From Bacilli bacterium (lineage in GTDB: Bacteria > Bacillota_I > Bacilli_A > RFN20 > CAG-826): a DNA stretch of 64,000 nucleotides. This document shows positions 12,246 through 27,007 of this stretch, in pieces. The first letter of the stretch is position 1; every line of letters starts with the position of its first letter. The stretch is taken from assembly GCA_017619815.1 (NCBI GenBank), contig JAFZRR010000017.1:1-64000 (forward strand), given 5' to 3'. Below the pieces are notes generated by a model. It searched no databases, was not told where the DNA came from, and saw only the letters and a list, made by a program, of their open reading frames with translations. The position numbers and the translations under genes are program-made.

Positions 12246-13094
12246 TTACTCCTCCTTTTCATCGATTTCTTTATCGACGTTAGTTGCTTCTTCTTGCTCC
12301 TTATTTTGAAGCGCGGCAAGCTGCGCTTTAAGATTTTCAATCTCGGCTTGGTTAGAATCAATTTGCGCTTGAGTTTCACCAGCTTTGATCAATTTCTTTT
12401 CCTTCTTATCTTTATAGACATAGAAGATGATTTTACCTATTTCAAAGAAACATAAGAGCGTGCATGGAATGACGACGAGGAACAAAATTCCATTGCGGGA
12501 TTTTAAGAACGAAACTACTTCTCCCATTGGATGGTTCATCCAAACGACTTTGCCAATCACATAGGAGAATGATTGCTCCGCAGTTATTGGATTGGTGTAG
12601 ACAGTTTGGACTCCACCTGATGCTTGTTCAGCGTCACCCATAAGGGTTAATTTATAACCCTCTAAAGCAGGTGTTTTTTCAATAAGTCTGTGGGTATAGA
12701 CATATTGACCTGTTTTTCCATTGATTGATGTGTAATAAACAAATGTCACCACATCACCGACCTTAAGGTCTTCGTAAAACTTTTCCGCATTCTTTTCTGT
12801 AACTTCTTTAATTCGAATCAAAGAATTAACAGGAAGAGTTTTAATGGAATAGGATTTATAGGTCTCCGGATCAATATGGTTATTCTCTGACATAGAACCA
12901 GTTTCTACGGTTCTAAGTTGGTAACCATTGATGGAGTTGCCATTTTTGTTATTCGATGTCGTATTACGAAAGATAATGGCGACGACCGCGAAGGCCGCAA
13001 AAGAAATGAATAAAGCATCAAGGACAATACTAATAATTTTTCTGACCTTGGATTGTTTATTTTCTTCCTTTTTGACTTCTTGCGCTTCTTCCAT
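12246..13094 (-). CDS. sipW: SipW-type (ER/archaeal-type) signal peptidase I with a C-terminal TM anchor
   Basis: Catalytic-box equivalents TGSMS (SGSMEP-like), YTHRLI (THRI/V) and MGDAEQ (GDN-like). N- and C-terminal TM segments present. Confidence 0.65.
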   Translation of the reverse strand: MEEAQEVKKEENKQSKVRKIISIVLDALFISFAAFAVVAIIFRNTTSNNKNGNSINGYQLRTVETGSMSENNHIDPETYKSYSIKTLPVNSLIRIKEVTEKNAEKFYEDLKVGDVVTFVYYTSINGKTGQYVYTHRLIEKTPALEGYKLTLMGDAEQASGGVQTVYTNPITAEQSFSYVIGKVVWMNHPMGEVVSFLKSRNGILFLVVIPCTLLCFFEIGKIIFYVYKDKKEKKLIKAGETQAQIDSNQAEIENLKAQLAALQNKEQEEATNVDKEIDEKEE

Positions 13095-13105
13095 AAAATT
13101 CCTAA

Positions 13106-13597
13106 CTACATCGTTTTAATGAAAGACATGTGGAAAGTGAACTGCATATCGAGTTCTGGTTCCACGACTTCATTTGATAAATAGAAAGTTAAGGTGAAAT
13201 TCTCACCATCTTCTTTAATGAATGTCTTATCTTTTAAAGCGTTTTCTTTATCAAGATTCTTGATTTCATAAATGTTTGTTCCGTCTTCTTTGACAAATAA
13301 TAATTTGTCATCTTGTCTAGCGGACACACTGACATACTTCGCGGAATATTCATCTACATCTGTAAACCATAAAGAGGTATTCGCATTTGAATACCAATCA
13401 AAATCAACTTCGATATTGAAGTCTTTTTGCTGTCCAGGAAGCATGTCTAAATAGATGTCTTGTTCGACAACTTCGCCATCTTCTGTGGTCATGGTTTGTT
13501 TTTGAGAATTATAGTAATACCCCACAACAACACCAGCACCACCTGTTAATAGAAGACCTGAACAGATGAATAAACCGATGATTGTATGTAGTTTCAT
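13106..13597 (-). CDS. small secreted protein immediately upstream of sipW (TapA-position gene)
   Basis: 163 aa with signal peptide MKLHTIIGLFICSGLLLTGGAGVVVG. Start overlaps the upstream stop as TAATG. Confidence 0.5.
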   Translation of the reverse strand: MKLHTIIGLFICSGLLLTGGAGVVVGYYYNSQKQTMTTEDGEVVEQDIYLDMLPGQQKDFNIEVDFDWYSNANTSLWFTDVDEYSAKYVSVSARQDDKLLFVKEDGTNIYEIKNLDKENALKDKTFIKEDGENFTLTFYLSNEVVEPELDMQFTFHMSFIKTM

Positions 13598-15123
13598 TAT
13601 TTACTCTTTTCTATACCTGCTGCTGCCATCGCGTCATCGATGAGTTTCATCGCGCGCTTCATAGCTAATTCAGATTTCACTCTGAAACATAATGGGAGAT
13701 CTTCAAATGCTTTCTTTGAAGAATCATCTTCCACTGGAATCTTGCTATCTGCGTAAGCTTTTGGATCCAAACGATAATGAATCTTTAAAGTCTTACCTGC
13801 GATTTGTAATTTCACGTATGTCTTACGTTTATAAGATAAGGAATCCGCAGTTGTGCTGACACGTGAAACCAAGGCATATTTTTCAATACCATAATCCTTG
13901 ATTTCCTTGTAAGCGTGACGTGTTTCATTTCTCACTCTTAAAAGTTTTTCGTAGAAAGTACGTGTTTTAATATTTGGGAATCCATCGCCGCCCTCTTCGG
14001 CTTCTGGTTCTTCTTTAACTGGTTCAGGTTTTGGTTCTGGTTTCTTTTCGATAACCACTTTCTTTGGCTCTGGTTTTGGTTTTTCAACCTTTTCTTTTGG
14101 TTCTTCTTCCTCTTGAAGTTTTGCTAATTCTTCTGGGGATAATTTTTGAAGACCCGCTTTGAGCATTGTGTCACCCAATAATTGTTTTGCACGTTTTAAA
14201 CCAAGATTTGACTTAACACGGAACACCAAAGGAATATCAGCGAATAATTTCTTCGCTGAATCATCTTCCACTGGAATTGGGGAGTCTTTATAATCCGCTG
14301 GTTCAAGACGGTAATGGAGTTTTAATGTACGTCCACCGATACCGATCTTGAGGTAATTGATTTTCTTATATGAGTAAGCATCACCATTAGAGGAAACACG
14401 AGATTTCAAACCATAAGATAATGCTTCTTGTTTGAGTTCTTCATAGAAAGAAACTTGTTCTTCAGAAATGAGGTGTAATTTTTCTTCGAATGTTCTTCTA
14501 TTAATATTGATTTCTTTGCCACCTTCTTCAGCTGGTTCTTCACTAGCTTCTTCCACTGGTTCTGGTTGAGGAGCGGATTCTTCTTTAACTGGTTCAGGTT
14601 CTTTTTCTGGTTCTTTTTCCACGACTGGCTCTGGCTCTGGTTGTGGTTCAGATTCTGGTAAAACAATCTTTTCTTCTTTTTGTGGTTGTTCCTTAATTGG
14701 ATCCACAGCAAGAACAAGGACTTGTTTTCCGTTTTTCACCATAAATGTGAATTTTGCAGATAAAAGATATAAACGATAAAATTCTTCAAAATCGTCTCTA
14801 TTTTTGAAGTATGGATCTTTTTTATCTTTCTTATATTGTTCTTCGTTAGCTTTGATGTAGTTATCAAATAGTTCTTTATTAGAAGCGACATATTCGCGTT
14901 CTCTTTTTAGAACTACATCTAAGACAATTTTTCCTAATTCACCACTTTGACTTTTGTTAAAGAGATTCTCGAAGTCATCATCGAAGAGTTCGAATAATGC
15001 ATGCGCGACAATCTTTGTGGCTTTTTCCGCGAGTGGAGATGCAGGTCTACTGACATCCACCAAAATAAGCGAAAAGTCATTTTCACGTTGGAAAACAACT
15101 GGCATAACATTTTTAAGTTCCAT
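13597..15123 (-). CDS. cytoplasmic protein with two tandem ~125-aa repeat domains separated by Pro/Glu/Lys-rich linkers
   Basis: 508 aa. Repeat 1 is NINRRTFEEKLHLISEE...LKLHYRLEPADYKDSPIPVEDDSAKKLFADIPLVFRVKSNLGLKRAKQLL. Repeat 2 is NIKTRTFYEKLLRV...LKIHYRLDPKAYADSKIPVEDDSSKKAFEDLPLCFRVKSELAMKRAMKLI. Linkers are PEPEPVVEKEPEKEPEP stretches. No signal peptide. Confidence 0.6.
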   Translation of the reverse strand: MELKNVMPVVFQRENDFSLILVDVSRPASPLAEKATKIVAHALFELFDDDFENLFNKSQSGELGKIVLDVVLKREREYVASNKELFDNYIKANEEQYKKDKKDPYFKNRDDFEEFYRLYLLSAKFTFMVKNGKQVLVLAVDPIKEQPQKEEKIVLPESEPQPEPEPVVEKEPEKEPEPVKEESAPQPEPVEEASEEPAEEGGKEININRRTFEEKLHLISEEQVSFYEELKQEALSYGLKSRVSSNGDAYSYKKINYLKIGIGGRTLKLHYRLEPADYKDSPIPVEDDSAKKLFADIPLVFRVKSNLGLKRAKQLLGDTMLKAGLQKLSPEELAKLQEEEEPKEKVEKPKPEPKKVVIEKKPEPKPEPVKEEPEAEEGGDGFPNIKTRTFYEKLLRVRNETRHAYKEIKDYGIEKYALVSRVSTTADSLSYKRKTYVKLQIAGKTLKIHYRLDPKAYADSKIPVEDDSSKKAFEDLPLCFRVKSELAMKRAMKLIDDAMAAAGIEKSK

Positions 15124-15348
15124 AAAAGCACCCCTTTTTTACTAAACTCAAATCTACGTATATATGTATGTGTTTATATTTTATATGAGAAAAGTTTTAA
15201 TGACAAACGGTGGAATTATCGAACTTGAAAAAAACAATTTGGGTCCTTTTCAATTTTTTCCTCACTACATCAGTATTTTTTAACAATTTTTGCCAAAAAA
15301 CATTATTTTTCAAATTTTGATAAAAAGTTGCGATATGGCCTTAAAAAA

Positions 15349-15382
15349 GTAAAAGAAAAGCGATCGCTCACACGATCGCGTT
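15349..15382 (-). terminator. minus-strand intrinsic terminator closing the GC-rich non-coding island
   Basis: On the minus strand the sequence reads CGCGATCG-tgtgag-CGATCGC followed by TTTTCTTTT. Confidence 0.5.
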
Positions 15383-15849
15383 AACCGGTTGTTTTGTATC
15401 AGGGACGAGCCCTGACACATAACACAAGTTGAGTTCTTTCTGTCTGGTGGTGCTTCTTGTTGACGATACGTTTTAAATTGATTAGCGTATCGGTGGCCAG
15501 ATTCCTCTAGTTATTAGCTTCGAGGCCTTTTTCCTTTTCGTCGTGTCCGGTACTGGATTTATCCCGTCAAACTCTAACGCGGGGACCAGTGATGCAAGCA
15601 TCAGTGAGGAACGTACCGATCGTTACCTTAATTCAGATAACGCTTTGCTAGTGCAACCATTAACCACTTTTTTTGATTCCATGGAGTTCCTACATCAATT
15701 TGGAGGAGCTGGTTGGCTTATCTAGTCTTGAACTTATTAATCCGTTTCTTCGTGGAGGTATCTCTTTGGAAGTTCTCCACTATTGTCACACGTTTGTTGA
15801 ATTATGTGACTTAGGCTTGCACTGCTTTGATTAGAAGCAGTATTTTGTA

Positions 15850-15920
15850 CCTCTTCGATCGTGTCCGGCGGTGGAATTACGCTGTTAAGTTCTAACTCAG
15901 CGACCACTGTAGCAGGGAGG
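15850..15920. repeat. 71-nt direct repeat copy 1 inside the GC-rich island
   Basis: CCTCTTCGATCGTGTCCGGCGGTGGAATTACGCTGTTAAGTTCTAACTCAGCGACCACTGTAGCAGGGAGG. A degenerate third copy starts near 15527 (CTTTTCGTCGTGTCCGG...). Confidence 0.8.
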
Positions 15921-16147
15921 TAAACCGTTAATCAACCCGAAGATTGATTAGCCGCTTGCGATCATGAACCAGAAGATTTAATCCTGGAACCTTACTATCA
16001 ACGTCGTGTAATGGTTGATCGTCGATTGTGCGGCTGAACTTCATTGCCCCTTTGTTAAGCATGCATTGAGAGGCTTAACTTATTTCACGTTGAATGTTAA
16101 CTTAGCGTGAACGGCAGTGTTATAAGGTATTAATCTCATAACCTTTG

Positions 16148-16219
16148 TCCTCTTCGACTGTGTCGGGCGGTGGGATTACGCTGTTAAGTTCTAACTCAGC
16201 GACCACTGTAGCAGGGAGG
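16148..16219. repeat. 71-nt direct repeat copy 2 (about 298 nt downstream of copy 1; roughly 4-5 mismatches)
   Basis: CCTCTTCGACTGTGTCGGGCGGTGGGATTACGCTGTTAAGTTCTAACTCAGCGACCACTGTAGCAGGGAGG. Confidence 0.8.
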
Positions 16220-16611
16220 ATCGACCTCGATTATTACCGAAGTAACAATCTACTAGTGCAATCATTAATCTGGAACTTTTGAGTTCTAGAACCGTCGTGT
16301 TAACTTCGTTTCCTACGTTGATTGACTTACCTAGATTTGGGTTAGTGAGTAGCTATCGCTACTCATTCCCATCAATTTGGTTTCCCAAGTTGATTGGTAA
16401 TAGTATCTTCTTTTTTATAAATTTGGTCAAGCACTTTTTTTAAAATTTTTTTAACTTTTTTATTTTTCTCGATGGCATCGTATCTTTTTTTGCAAAAAAA
16501 TTTTTAAAAATATTTTGTTTTTTATTTTTTTATTATTTTTTCCCGCTAGTTTTTGGTTTCACGTATAAAAATTATTATTAATTGAACGCATGTGCGCGTA
16601 TATATAGAAAC

Positions 16612-16646
16612 AAAAAACCACCAACGAGGGTGGCTTTTGTTTTTAG
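16612..16646 (-). terminator. intrinsic terminator downstream of 16657-16962
   Basis: CCACC-aacgag-GGTGG hairpin flanked by A6 and T-rich runs. Confidence 0.55.
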
Positions 16647-16962: not shown

Positions 16963-17131
16963 GGTGTAATTCCTTTCTAAACTTATGGTTTATTATATAA
17001 CTATTCTACAAATAATAGTATTTCTATGTAAATATTCCTTTTAAAAAGATAATATTAAAAATTCTTTGATTTAATCGATATTTAATAGAATTAAAGTGTT
17101 TTGATAAAAATTGAAATATATAATATTTTCG

Positions 17132-18379
17132 ATGGCAAAAAACAAAAAGTATCCAGAAATAACACCAGATCTTCCTTTTCAACGTACCTGGTTAATATTT
17201 GAAATCGTTATTTGGATTATTGCTCTAATTAATAAGATTAAAAATAGAGCGAAGATTGTTAAAAGAAACAAAATACCAAAACCACCATATATTTTGATAT
17301 CCACTCATGCATCGATGTTGGATTTTTATATGGCTTTAATGCTCACATTCCCACACAGGGTTTATTGGATATCCACAGTGGAAGAATTCATTCCTCGTTT
17401 CTTTATCTTTAGAAGAATTGGTGTTTTAGCGAAAAGAAAATTCACCAATGATCCAAAAGCGGCGATGAGATATTTAGAAGTTCTTCAAAAGAAGAAGATT
17501 TTAGTCATTTATCCTGAAGCAAGATATTCCTTCATGGGAGAGACAGAAAGATTTGATAAAGGATTAGGCAAAATGGCCAAAATGGCGAACGTTCCAGTGG
17601 TTTTGATAAGAGAACACGGAAACTATTTATATTGCCCTCAGTGGAGCGATCACAAGGTCAGAAAAGTCCGTCCAATTGTTGATGAAGTTGAGACTATCAT
17701 TTCTAGAAATGATTTAGAAGTTATGAACGCGGATGAAATCCAAGCGAAGATTGAAGAGAACTTCGTGAACTCCGAAGAAGATTGGATGAGAAGAAAACAT
17801 ATTCTTATCAAATATAATAACCGCGCGGTCGGTTTAGAAAGAATCCTTTATAAGTGTCCACATTGTGGAACAGAATTTGAAATGAGTTCAAATACTCACT
17901 TTATTAAATGTAATCATTGTGGCGTTACATATGACTATTTAGAAAATGGTCAGTTACAACGCGTTGATGGAGAAAGTAAATTCCATTACCCAAGCGAATG
18001 GTATAAATGGGAAAAAGAATGCGTTAAAGAAGAGGTCCTTAAGGGAACATATCATTTTGAAGATGATGTTCGTGTGGAAAGACTTATGGGTGCGGGTATT
18101 GGCTTTGTTCCTCAAGAGGGCCACTACCACTTAACACATGATATTGATGAGGGCTTTGTGGTTAAAGGAACGGATAATGGTTTTGAATTTAGACGCTCAT
18201 CACTACAAAGTTACGCTCTTCATATTGAATATAACTATTTAGATAGAGGAGCATTCCTTGAATTAGCGGATTTAAAAGATACATACTTTATATATCCACT
18301 CAATAAACCACAGCAATTAACAAAACTTCACTTTGCTGTGGAACACATTTACGATTTCAAAAAGGCTCAAATTAAATAA
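17132..18379 (+). CDS. lysophospholipid acyltransferase (PlsC/LPLAT family) with a C-terminal Cys4 zinc-ribbon domain
   Basis: HX4D motif in ISTHASMLD and a PEARYS block. CPHCG...CNHCG zinc ribbon. The ATG at 17132 is used because the track start at 17111 is a TTG. A TATAAT lies 7 nt upstream of the ATG, so the mRNA is possibly leaderless. Confidence 0.65.
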   Translation: MAKNKKYPEITPDLPFQRTWLIFEIVIWIIALINKIKNRAKIVKRNKIPKPPYILISTHASMLDFYMALMLTFPHRVYWISTVEEFIPRFFIFRRIGVLAKRKFTNDPKAAMRYLEVLQKKKILVIYPEARYSFMGETERFDKGLGKMAKMANVPVVLIREHGNYLYCPQWSDHKVRKVRPIVDEVETIISRNDLEVMNADEIQAKIEENFVNSEEDWMRRKHILIKYNNRAVGLERILYKCPHCGTEFEMSSNTHFIKCNHCGVTYDYLENGQLQRVDGESKFHYPSEWYKWEKECVKEEVLKGTYHFEDDVRVERLMGAGIGFVPQEGHYHLTHDIDEGFVVKGTDNGFEFRRSSLQSYALHIEYNYLDRGAFLELADLKDTYFIYPLNKPQQLTKLHFAVEHIYDFKKAQIK

Positions 18380-21709: not shown

Positions 21710-21721
21710 AATAACAGAACA

Positions 21722-21826
21722 AAAGGCACACTTAGAGAAATCTAAGGTCGCAAAGCTATAGGGCCCAGAGGGCAGCCAGTTGCTTCTAAGTTTATGCTTA
21801 GAGGTTTTTTATTTTTAGAACCTCAA
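21722..21826 (+). promoter_or_regulatory. c-di-GMP-I (GEMM)-like riboswitch candidate with an intrinsic terminator expression platform
   Basis: AGGCACAC-CTTAGA-GAAA-TCTAAG-GTCGCAAAGC-TATAGGGCC...CAGCCAGTTGC. This resembles the GEMM-I pattern GGCAAACC, a GNRA hairpin, GACGCAAAGC and AGCCRGYURCC. It is followed by the hairpin CTTCTAAG-tttatg-CTTAGAGG and TTTTTTATTTTT. Confidence 0.45.
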
Positions 21827-21851: not shown

Positions 21852-22436
21852 ATGACACTCAAAAACAAAATCGCTGCTATCACAGCAGCCTCAATGGTAG
21901 CATTTGTCGGAATCGGTTTTGCTGCCTGGACATTCAACAACAGCATTGCACAAACAGCACCAGAAAGCGCTTATGCAACATCCGCAATTGAAGCAAACAA
22001 CGTTGCGCTCAGCGGAAACACAGTGGTCTATTTAGTTTTAGATCAATCCAAACCATACTGGTCAACAGCAGTCAACAACGGTTCAAAACCAGTTGAATTA
22101 GCAAATGGTAAAATCACAGTCACACCATCTTACAGTTTGCAAAATCAAAATGATGGCGCGTCTTGGACTTACACATTAACAAGTGCTATTACAGTTGATG
22201 CCGCTATTGCAACATACGTTGATGTTACAGGATTCGACACAGTTGCTAAGACAGGTACAGTTACAGCAGGAGGCGGTGCAAACCAAATCGCAGCGCAAGA
22301 TTATGACTTACCAGCTCTCGCTTACACAGCAAGCAAACCAGCAAACTATACTGATTATCAAACAATGTTAACAGCTATCGGTACCGCTCACATCACATTC
22401 ACATTCAACTGCACATTCGCAGAAGTCGCCGCATAA
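21852..22436 (+). CDS. small TasA/camelysin-like secreted protein with a SipW-cognate-type signal
   Basis: 194 aa. Signal VAFVGIGFAAWTFNN resembles the TasA GGGTWAAFND signal. SD GAAGGAG upstream. Confidence 0.55.
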   Translation: MTLKNKIAAITAASMVAFVGIGFAAWTFNNSIAQTAPESAYATSAIEANNVALSGNTVVYLVLDQSKPYWSTAVNNGSKPVELANGKITVTPSYSLQNQNDGASWTYTLTSAITVDAAIATYVDVTGFDTVAKTGTVTAGGGANQIAAQDYDLPALAYTASKPANYTDYQTMLTAIGTAHITFTFNCTFAEVAA

Positions 22437-26931: not shown

Positions 26932-27007
26932 TGGTGGATCTAATCGGGATCGAACCGACGACCTCATCGTTGCGAACGATGCGCTCTCCCAACTGAGCTA
27001 CAGACCC
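26932..27007 (-). tRNA. tRNA-Ala (anticodon CGC), CCA encoded
   Basis: GGGTCTGTAGCTCAGTTGGGAGAGCGCATCGTTCGCAACGATGAGGTCGTCGGTTCGATCCCGATTAGATCCACCA. Cloverleaf folds with G3:U70, A73, anticodon loop TTCGCAA and T-loop TTCGATC. Confidence 0.8.

Follow-up and report, generated by a model that had tools for sequence, protein, structure and literature searches.

Bacterial non-coding RNAs (ncRNAs) of great size and complexity are very few, and each of them, from the ribosomal RNAs, group II introns and RNase P to OLE, GOLLD and ROOL, has opened new biology. ROOL was also first found in the rumen. In ROOL, GOLLD and OLE, kissing loops are reported to build homo-oligomers (10.1101/2024.12.08.627333). 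A far smaller RNA, cow-rumen-1 (RF02946; Rfam type 'Gene; sRNA', 61 nt), was introduced in Weinberg et al. 2017 (PMC5737381), whose main text is silent on the motif and whose supplement alone describes it; in the literature searched, no other paper text on cow-rumen-1 or RF02946 was found beyond that supplement. Here we analyze the island at positions 15349-16395 of a 64,000-nt stretch of contig JAFZRR010000017.1, from a Bacilli bacterium (the window), for which an earlier note had proposed a ~1-kb structured ncRNA on the minus strand. Our analysis supports this proposal, since the ends of the element match a profile built from its homologues and its fold shows compensatory variation, and indicates that the RNA is a chain of three homologous modules, each containing one cow-rumen-1 motif.

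Results

The predicted transcript, as defined by the family profile, the promoter and the terminator, runs from window position 16395 to 15351 on the minus strand (~1,045 nt), and nhmmer matched this segment to profile positions 3-1060 of 1061 with an E-value of 7.9e-272. Transcription is predicted to start at ~16395, from a sigma-70-like promoter (Table 1) that aligns with a TTGCAA/TTGACG ... CATACT promoter kept just upstream of 27 aligned homologues, in which the A, A and T of the -10 box are invariant. At the other end, a hairpin followed by a T-run lies just downstream at the same place in 27/27 of these homologues, with a terminator sequence that varies. Both signals had been anticipated in the earlier note, as an intrinsic terminator of its own on the minus strand and a promoter-like region on the opposite side, and their conservation gives indirect support to expression as a discrete RNA. 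In addition, a hairpin with T-runs on both sides, read on both strands, is found just upstream of the RNA promoter; it probably terminates the gene of a 101-amino-acid (aa) membrane protein, by which the RNA gene would be insulated from read-through.

The G+C content of the element is 0.434, compared with 0.356 for the whole window and 0.258 and 0.245 for the flanking intergenic DNA. The previous estimate of ~45% was close and the contrast with the surroundings is real, while the ~30% assumed for the genome was slightly low. Across the element the six frames contain 15-27 stop codons each, the longest stop-free run is 79 codons and the longest listed open reading frame (ORF) has 60 aa, in line with the previous view that no credible ORF exists. 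Furthermore, no ORF lies within the element in any homologous locus; those that seemed to do so were neighbouring genes overlapping the flanks and were discarded. A decayed protein gene with three repeated domains, or small peptides translated after the Shine-Dalgarno-like GAAGAGG, might be invoked because this sequence resembles a ribosome-binding site and an ATG 9 nt after the first copy opens a 19-codon frame. This can hardly be the case, given the stops in every frame, the absence of the ATG from most homologues, where the 19-codon frame is not conserved, and the pattern of substitutions, which is compensatory rather than codon-patterned (a linker hairpin changes from CAC..GUG to CAG..CUG); moreover, the GAGG is itself paired with an upstream CCUC (helices 12, 24 and 35).

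A degenerate 33-nt hairpin pattern was searched in bacterial contigs representing one genome per species and in metagenomes, and matched 42 genome loci and 93 metagenome loci (135 loci). All 42 genome loci come from metagenome-assembled genomes (MAGs) of cattle, goat, buffalo, deer or reindeer fore-stomachs, labelled Bacilli, Bacillales or Erysipelotrichaceae, and in them the copies occur nearly always in threes, with a first spacing of ~300-320 nt and a second of ~318-335 nt. Twenty-seven complete elements were aligned and are conserved end to end, with a mean column identity of 68%. The profile made from this alignment finds 82 full-length three-module elements among the 135 loci of ruminant MAGs and metagenomes, and dereplication at 95% left 59 sequences with a mean pairwise identity of 65%. 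The three-module order is kept in the 82 elements, and the modules are positionally orthologous, each being closer to the same-numbered module of other species than to its own neighbours, which means that the triplication is old. The window contig is 85-88% identical over several kilobases to its closest relatives (loci L090, L059 and L004), so its source is a separate though related species of these rumen Bacilli. Relatives and covariation, which the earlier note had named among the checks on its proposal, are both found, as 82 full-length homologues and extensive compensatory variation in the fold.

The RNA is built of three related ~300-nt modules in the order A-B-A'. In the junction of each module an outer helix (CUAG/CUAG in modules 1 and 3, AGCC/GGCU in module 2) and an inner helix enclose two hairpins, one with (A)AGUUGA or a variant in its loop and the other with a loop of the GAUUAAA type, and each module also has a variable hairpin followed by a pseudoknotted domain. 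In this domain a strand xGGy pairs with GCCx in what Rfam draws as the 'tail' of cow-rumen-1, and the end of the tail, (G)AGG, pairs with a strand CCU(C); a small hairpin and the Rfam hairpin lie between these. Two long-range contacts are also formed: six bases 143-168 nt downstream form the partner of the Rfam hairpin loop (GAACUU, GAGCUU, AAGUUU, etc.), and the junction loop makes a kissing loop with the loop of a linker hairpin ~200 nt downstream. The receptors of the Rfam loops directly precede the junction of the next module, that of module 3 being located in the 3' cap domain; in the window letters, read directly, the GAACUU loop of module 1 is perfectly complementary to its AAGUUC receptor. 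The loop is identical in modules 1 and 2 in 22/59 RNAs, and loop-receptor and kissing-loop sequences are often shared between modules. The pseudoknot stem covaries between modules, as GGGY/GCCC in module 1, CGGC/GCCG in module 2 and CGGU/ACCG in module 3.

RNAalifold predicted 169 pairs from the 27 sequences, 94 of them with compensatory changes, and a scan of mutual information between all pairs of columns in the 59-sequence alignment, with average-product correction, brought out the local helices as well as several long-range ones absent from the folding prediction. The curated structure comprises 192 pairs in 42 helices, including the pseudoknots. When counted on a MAFFT alignment of the 27 sequences, 96.4% of the cells are paired, compared with 86.1% after shuffling and 28-43% when partners are slid by 1-3 columns; 109 pairs show changes on both sides (62.6±3.5 after shuffling, with 0/500 shuffles reaching 109, and 17-32 after sliding) and the covariation score is 0.362 (0.165 shuffled, 0.06-0.08 slid). 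The long-range helices are each 97.5-99.4% paired in these 27 sequences, with 2-3 compensatory pairs; eight were tested on the alignment, six of which have compensatory pairs, and the ninth, the third kissing loop, was checked by sequence complementarity only (6.76 against 6.32±0.11 for permuted partners). Covarying loop-receptor positions are canonical in 59/59 sequences, with AU<->GC and CG<->UA swaps. In the module 3 pseudoknot domain, one pair (match columns 859/875) is CG in 34/59 and UA in 25/59. Similarly, 25 sequences from metagenomes, which share less than 90% identity with the genome set, are 96.3% paired (28-41% when slid) and have 121 compensatory pairs. A helix closing the 5' and 3' ends (AACC/GGUU) shows complementarity without variation and conflicts with a leader hairpin that covaries, and was left out. 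The element is a large structured ncRNA in the descriptive sense, being non-coding, longer than 500 nt and provided with junctions and with pseudoknots that show compensatory changes.

The repeats that gave the first indication of this architecture had been described as a ~300-nt periodicity with two near-identical 71-nt copies and a degenerate third, and a repeat finder agreed: copies 15850-15920 and 16149-16219 are 94% identical with starts 299 nt apart, and a third copy (15532-15602) is 63% identical and 318 nt away. The 33-nt pattern has 3 matches in the window, compared with 0.00 expected from 100 shuffles. An Rfam scan of the whole window returned three minus-strand matches to RF02946 over model positions 1-61, starting 299 and 318 nt apart and all scoring above the gathering score of 53.4 bits (Table 1). 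The repeat core thus belongs to a known class, contrary to the previous statement that none could be matched, and that statement holds for the whole ~1-kb element, which has no other Rfam family: a permissive cmscan of 15300-16450 (E<=10) gave only cow-rumen-1 and one chance match at 14.7 bits, and no match to ROOL, GOLLD, OLE, raiA, HEARO, T-box or ribozymes, so that the identity with ROOL, GOLLD, raiA, OLE or HEARO considered at first finds no support. A hammerhead-like CUGA...GAA in module 3 was dropped because its UGA belongs to a stem that covaries and ribozyme models gave no match.

Rfam classes RF02946 as a 61-nt small RNA (sRNA) gene, each of the three copies is a complete match and tandem sRNA paralogues occur in bacteria; the element could accordingly be read as three independent tandem cow-rumen-1 sRNA genes, with their own transcripts or cut from a precursor, that act separately. 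We consider this improbable. One promoter-like and one terminator-like site serve the three copies, with none between them, and the ~240 nt between copies are as conserved and structured as the motifs, in an element conserved end to end, with the order of its modules, in 82 homologues. In addition, covarying helices cross the motif borders and hence the supposed gene borders, through the pairings ~150 nt and ~200 nt downstream.

The number of modules varies between homologues. A five-module form (1.67-1.70 kb) is present at ~18 loci and corresponds to profile positions 2-698 followed by 62-1059, that is, A-B-A-B-A'; two such forms lie in MAG contigs with normal flanks (L020, 1064-2746; L023, 2502-4204), and further homologues of the five-module type include L073, L081 and L084. 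L061 (3-2071), in a truncated contig, has at least 7 modules and at least 2,069 nt, and L063 carries a duplication in a different register. The longer forms arose by duplication of the A-B pair through the homologous junction region. Furthermore, two full elements occur in tandem in L044 (4865-7280), L103, L104 (163-2389) and L125 (6579-8806), and some MAGs have two or three loci (for example JAZQVN, with L008, L016 and L028). Paralogues that share a genome or contig have only 62-79% identity and each keeps the full fold, so they are old duplicates kept intact. Among the metagenome contigs shorter than 1.3 kb, 19 of 26 end within 70 nt of both element ends, which is ambiguous between assembled transcripts and assembly breaks where the conserved element meets variable flanks. 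Such contigs include L050, L053, L056, L072, L101, L105, L130 and L132, and contigs of ~1.6 kb behave likewise for the five-module forms.

All-against-all clustering showed that the ORF families flanking the RNA differ among homologous loci and that the downstream gene may be on either strand; family-library searches covered the neighbours in the window, and neighbours at other loci were judged from sequence. In the window the RNA lies on the same strand as the SipW/TasA operon named in the earlier note, which had placed it directly upstream. The strand is right, and a 508-aa gene lies between them; as for the gene labels, SipW is a weak match of the 282-aa protein (35 bits versus a cut-off of 190) and TasA has no Pfam or NCBIfam support. 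A place on the same strand upstream of the operon, which comprises the 508-aa gene and that of the SipW-like peptidase, together with a terminator hairpin at the end, would suit a long cis-acting leader in which tandem riboswitch-like sensors control the operon via the terminator, and tandem aptamers exist in other systems. Nevertheless, across loci there is no conserved same-strand downstream gene family, the downstream genes being unrelated and often on the opposite strand, the terminator follows the 3' cap and no conserved anti-terminator alternative was seen, an AT-rich spacer of 226 nt that has a promoter-like site of its own (15206-15178) separates the RNA from the 508-aa gene, and four loci carry two full tandem copies. 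A cis-acting leader is therefore very improbable, and the varying neighbours of homologous loci give no support to the hinted link with the downstream operon.

Variable genomic context, together with variable module number and multiple diverged copies in some genomes, could also be expected of the RNA of a mobile or defence element, either a phage or satellite RNA, as many GOLLD and ROOL loci are, or a repeat-array antitoxin. This possibility also seems slight. The 33-nt pattern has no match in 2.9 million viral contigs, where four matches to a shorter pattern are due to chance and none fits the family profile, and blastn found no match in phage or plasmid records. In addition, there is no tRNA gene in 49 loci, no integrase, transposase, toxin or terminal repeat was seen next to the element, and the neighbours inspected resemble ordinary membrane, signalling and metabolic proteins.

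Table 1. Positions of the RNA, its parts and nearby features in the window. Parts of the RNA are listed 5' to 3'; slashes separate paired strands.
Feature	Position	Strand	Remarks
Sigma-70-like promoter	16430-16402	-	Consensus scan: -35 TTGACC, 17-nt spacer, -10 GATACT
5' leader, two hairpins	16394-16337	-	Helices 1-5; 13 pairs with both-side changes
Leader hairpin 1	16393-16390/16375-16372 with 16386-16385/16380-16379	-	
Leader hairpin 2	16370-16368/16341-16339 with 16364-16358/16353-16347	-	
Module 1 core junction	16336-16252	-	Helices 6-8 and 10
Module 1 outer helix	16334-16331/16256-16253	-	CUAG/CUAG
Module 1 inner helix	16324-16319/16264-16259	-	
Module 1 junction hairpin	16317-16315/16295-16293	-	AGUUAAC in loop
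Module 1 second hairpin	16290-16285/16274-16269	-	UUAAA-type loop
Module 1 pseudoknot domain	16229-16148	-	Contains cow-rumen-1 copy 1
Module 1 pseudoknot stem	16227-16224/16168-16165	-	
Module 1 closing helix	16220-16217/16151-16148	-	CCU/AGG
cow-rumen-1 copy 1	16209-16149	-	79.8 bits
Module 1 hairpin	16206-16197/16183-16170	-	
Module 1 loop and receptor	16191-16186/16041-16036	-	GAACUU with AAGUUC; helix 16, 59/59 canonical, AU<->GC swaps
Linker 1	16147-16042	-	Hairpin 16110-16106/16089-16085, then variable hairpin
Kissing loop 1	16305-16299/16101-16095	-	Module 1 core loop with linker 1 loop GUUAAC(A); helix 9, 97.9% paired, 3 compensatory pairs
Module 2 core junction	16041-15950	-	Helices 18-20 and 22; preceded by receptor 16041-16036
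Module 2 outer helix	16035-16031/15954-15950	-	
Module 2 inner helix	16021-16016/15964-15959	-	
Module 2 GUUGA loop	16002-15998	-	
Module 2 GAUUAAA hairpin	15987-15982/15974-15969	-	
Module 2 pseudoknot domain	15927-15849	-	Contains cow-rumen-1 copy 2
Module 2 pseudoknot stem	15927-15924/15869-15866	-	CGGU/GCCG; helix 23, 99.1% paired, 2 compensatory pairs
cow-rumen-1 copy 2	15910-15850	-	85.5 bits
Module 2 loop and receptor	15892-15887/15735-15730	-	GAACUU with AAGUUC; helix 28, 98.8% paired, 2 compensatory
Linker 2	15848-15736	-	Helices 29-30; hairpin directly after tail
Linker 2 hairpin	15809-15804/15791-15786	-	UCAAC loop 15800-15796 complementary to module 2 GUUGA loop (kissing loop 2, helix 21, invariant)
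Linker 2 further hairpin	15779-15775/15757-15753	-	
Module 3 core junction	15735-15648	-	Helices 31-32; preceded by receptor 15735-15730; loop with AAUUGA
Module 3 outer helix	15725-15722/15651-15648	-	CUAG/CUAG
Module 3 inner helix	15715-15710/15659-15654	-	
Module 3 pseudoknot domain	15620-15531	-	Contains cow-rumen-1 copy 3; helices 34-39
Module 3 pseudoknot stem	15618-15615/15551-15548	-	CGGU/ACCG
Module 3 closing helix	15611-15607/15535-15531	-	
cow-rumen-1 copy 3	15592-15533	-	72.8 bits
Module 3 loop and receptor	15574-15569/15436-15431	-	GAGUUU with GAACUC; receptor in 3' cap
3' cap domain	15530-15382	-	Helices 40-42 and 39
3' cap hairpin	15525-15522/15507-15504	-	
3' cap helix	15501-15497/15447-15443	-	CUGG/CCAG; encloses the next hairpin
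3' cap enclosed hairpin	15492-15486/15470-15464	-	Loop UCAAUU complementary to module 3 core loop
3' cap further hairpin	15414-15400		CAGGGACGAGCCCUG (+ strand coordinates)
Intrinsic terminator	15381-15351	-	8-bp G+C-rich hairpin, then UUUUCUUUU
Terminator hairpin	15379-15360	-	GCGATCGTGTGAGCGATCGC, then TTTTCTTTT
282-aa protein gene	12246-13094	-	SipW NF046067, E 9e-9
163-aa protein gene	13106-13597	-	No family match
508-aa protein gene	13597-15123	-	Next gene on minus strand; no Pfam or NCBIfam family
Hairpin with T-runs	16613-16638	both	
101-aa membrane-protein gene	16962-16657	-	
PlsC-type acyltransferase gene (F10)	17111-18379	+	Pfam PF01553
c-di-GMP-I riboswitch aptamer	21715-21787	+	RF01051, 54.7 bits (gathering score 35)
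tRNA-Ala (anticodon CGC)	26932-27007	-	Only tRNA in the 64-kb window

Several neighbouring features are recorded as observations in their own right. The 508-aa protein has two clearly homologous ~120-aa domains of C-terminal type (...RTFEEKL...HYRLEPADYKDSPIPVEDDSAKK... and ...RTFYEKL...HYRLDPKAYADSKIPVEDDSSKK...), each preceded by a Pro/Glu/Lys-rich linker. PlsC-type acyltransferase genes flank the RNA in two clades, and belong to different families in different orientations: the one in the window is upstream and divergent, and the second (F2), which is the downstream ORF of the L001 clade (L001, L009, L012, L033, L038 and L041) and was judged from its HxxxxD motif only, is co-directional. 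This co-occurrence is possibly a coincidence. Farther away, a cyclic di-GMP (c-di-GMP-I) aptamer lies 65 nt upstream of six plus-strand ORFs that start at 21852 and are probably an operon, and the window contains a lone tRNA gene.

Discussion

We favour, as the probable reading, a free-standing modular ncRNA gene of ~1,045 nt whose product, of a new class, would act in trans as a scaffold-type RNA. Gene and fold are highly probable; the boundaries, the lack of coding capacity, the conservation across rumen Bacilli genomes, the helices with their covariation, the variable module number and the variable context are all shown by the present analysis. One minus-strand gene (~16395 to ~15351) would give a chain of three homologous modules, interlocked by the pairing of each cow-rumen-1 loop with six bases ~150 nt downstream and of each junction loop with a hairpin loop ~200 nt downstream, and the 3' cap would supply a 'next-module-like' receptor for the last module. 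Action in trans is suggested by the varying neighbours, the conserved terminator and the occurrence of tandem copies. In a multivalent structural scaffold, each module of the RNA would offer its partner the same loops and the same junction strand, which is nearly invariant (CCGGACAYGA-CGAAGAGG). The partner could be a protein, a ligand or further copies of the RNA, and the valency would be set by the module number (3, 5 or more), which changes in A-B pair steps with the linking logic retained. This mechanism, in our view the likeliest, is put forward tentatively, by analogy. Modules 1 and 2 often have identical loop and receptor sequences, so that pairing between molecules could also take place, and a more doubtful extension is a giant modular RNA class in which a ~300-nt pseudoknotted fold is concatenated covalently and intermolecular contacts give rise to filaments, cages or a scaffold of tunable valency.

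Several points weigh against this interpretation. The scaffold function is argued from other large bacterial RNAs, and the transcript is deduced from promoter, terminator and conservation. The sequences from which the structure was built overlap those used for its test, pseudoknot stem 3 and kissing loop 2 never vary and are hence uninformative on pairing, the variable hairpins are poorly aligned and the folding-energy signal of a single module is modest (z = -2.5). In addition, no protein gene is consistently adjacent and no family among the clustered flanking ORFs recurs throughout the RNA family. Cleavage into three smaller RNAs would also change the picture; it is judged together with the separate sRNA genes and shares their low probability. 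Nonetheless, the free-standing modular RNA accounts for the cross-module helices and the variable context better than any rival does.

With regard to cow-rumen-1, each module shares with the Rfam family the hairpin with a GUUAGA-type loop and the conserved 3' strand CCGGACAYGAUCGAAGAGG, as well as the habitat, ruminant gut metagenomes. In contrast, the Rfam model describes an sRNA of 61 nt that stands alone and has an unpaired 3' tail, whereas here the motif is a sub-domain repeated three (or five or more) times in one ~1-kb transcript, the 'tail' gives two pseudoknot strands, paired with upstream GGC and CCUC, and the loop has its partner ~150 nt downstream, a pairing that conflicts with the three topmost pairs of the Rfam hairpin. 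The outer and middle stems of that hairpin covary (helices 14-15, 26-27 and 37-38), whereas its three apical pairs, which close the UAGA loop, show mostly wobble changes and in module 3 are paired in 3/59 sequences; the long-range pairing of the same loop bases is better supported. The competition concerns RF02946 positions ~13-23, that is, window positions 16186-16196, 15887-15897 and 15569-15579 on the minus strand. Probably the Rfam model needs revision, or both loop pairings alternate. The 61-nt 'sRNA' can be re-read as a fragment of a far larger fold, with its 'unpaired' tail and its loop as pseudoknot strands. The full ~1-kb modular RNA appears to be undescribed in the literature and databases searched, a search that took in the main text of the 2017 paper; only a 61-nt piece of each module had been catalogued, in Rfam.

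The RNA would rank among the longest structured bacterial ncRNAs, with natural 5- and 7-module versions, and its alignment and helices make it testable by chemical probing, mass photometry and cryo-electron microscopy without culturing the host, which belongs to a group of uncultured rumen bacteria; it is therefore of high interest for RNA structural biology. We know of no other RNA of this kind in which three homologous complex domains are locked in one chain by covarying long-range pairings. As regards repeated units, the CsrB/RsmZ-type sequestering RNAs offer a parallel, being trans-acting, as is proposed here, and made of a unit whose number varies between homologues. Their repeats are short GGA hairpins of ~20 nt, whereas the present units are ~300-nt pseudoknotted domains with positional identity (A, B, A'). 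With ROOL, GOLLD and OLE, and also raiA, the RNA shares a long, non-coding and free-standing gene, multi-stem junctions, pseudoknots and kissing loops supported by covariation, so that it resembles the large 'ornate' RNAs and is a member of none of their families, as no sequence or structure match to ROOL, GOLLD, OLE or raiA was found at E<=10. It is longer than ROOL, GOLLD and OLE (1,045 nt, with variants of ~1.7 kb and at least 2.07 kb) and, unlike ROOL and GOLLD, has no tRNA or prophage neighbourhood. Finally, the assemblies of ROOL, GOLLD and OLE consist of identical separate chains, whereas here three homologous modules, known from sequence, are joined covalently; if the giant modular class is real, this RNA would be the covalent counterpart of those homo-oligomers.

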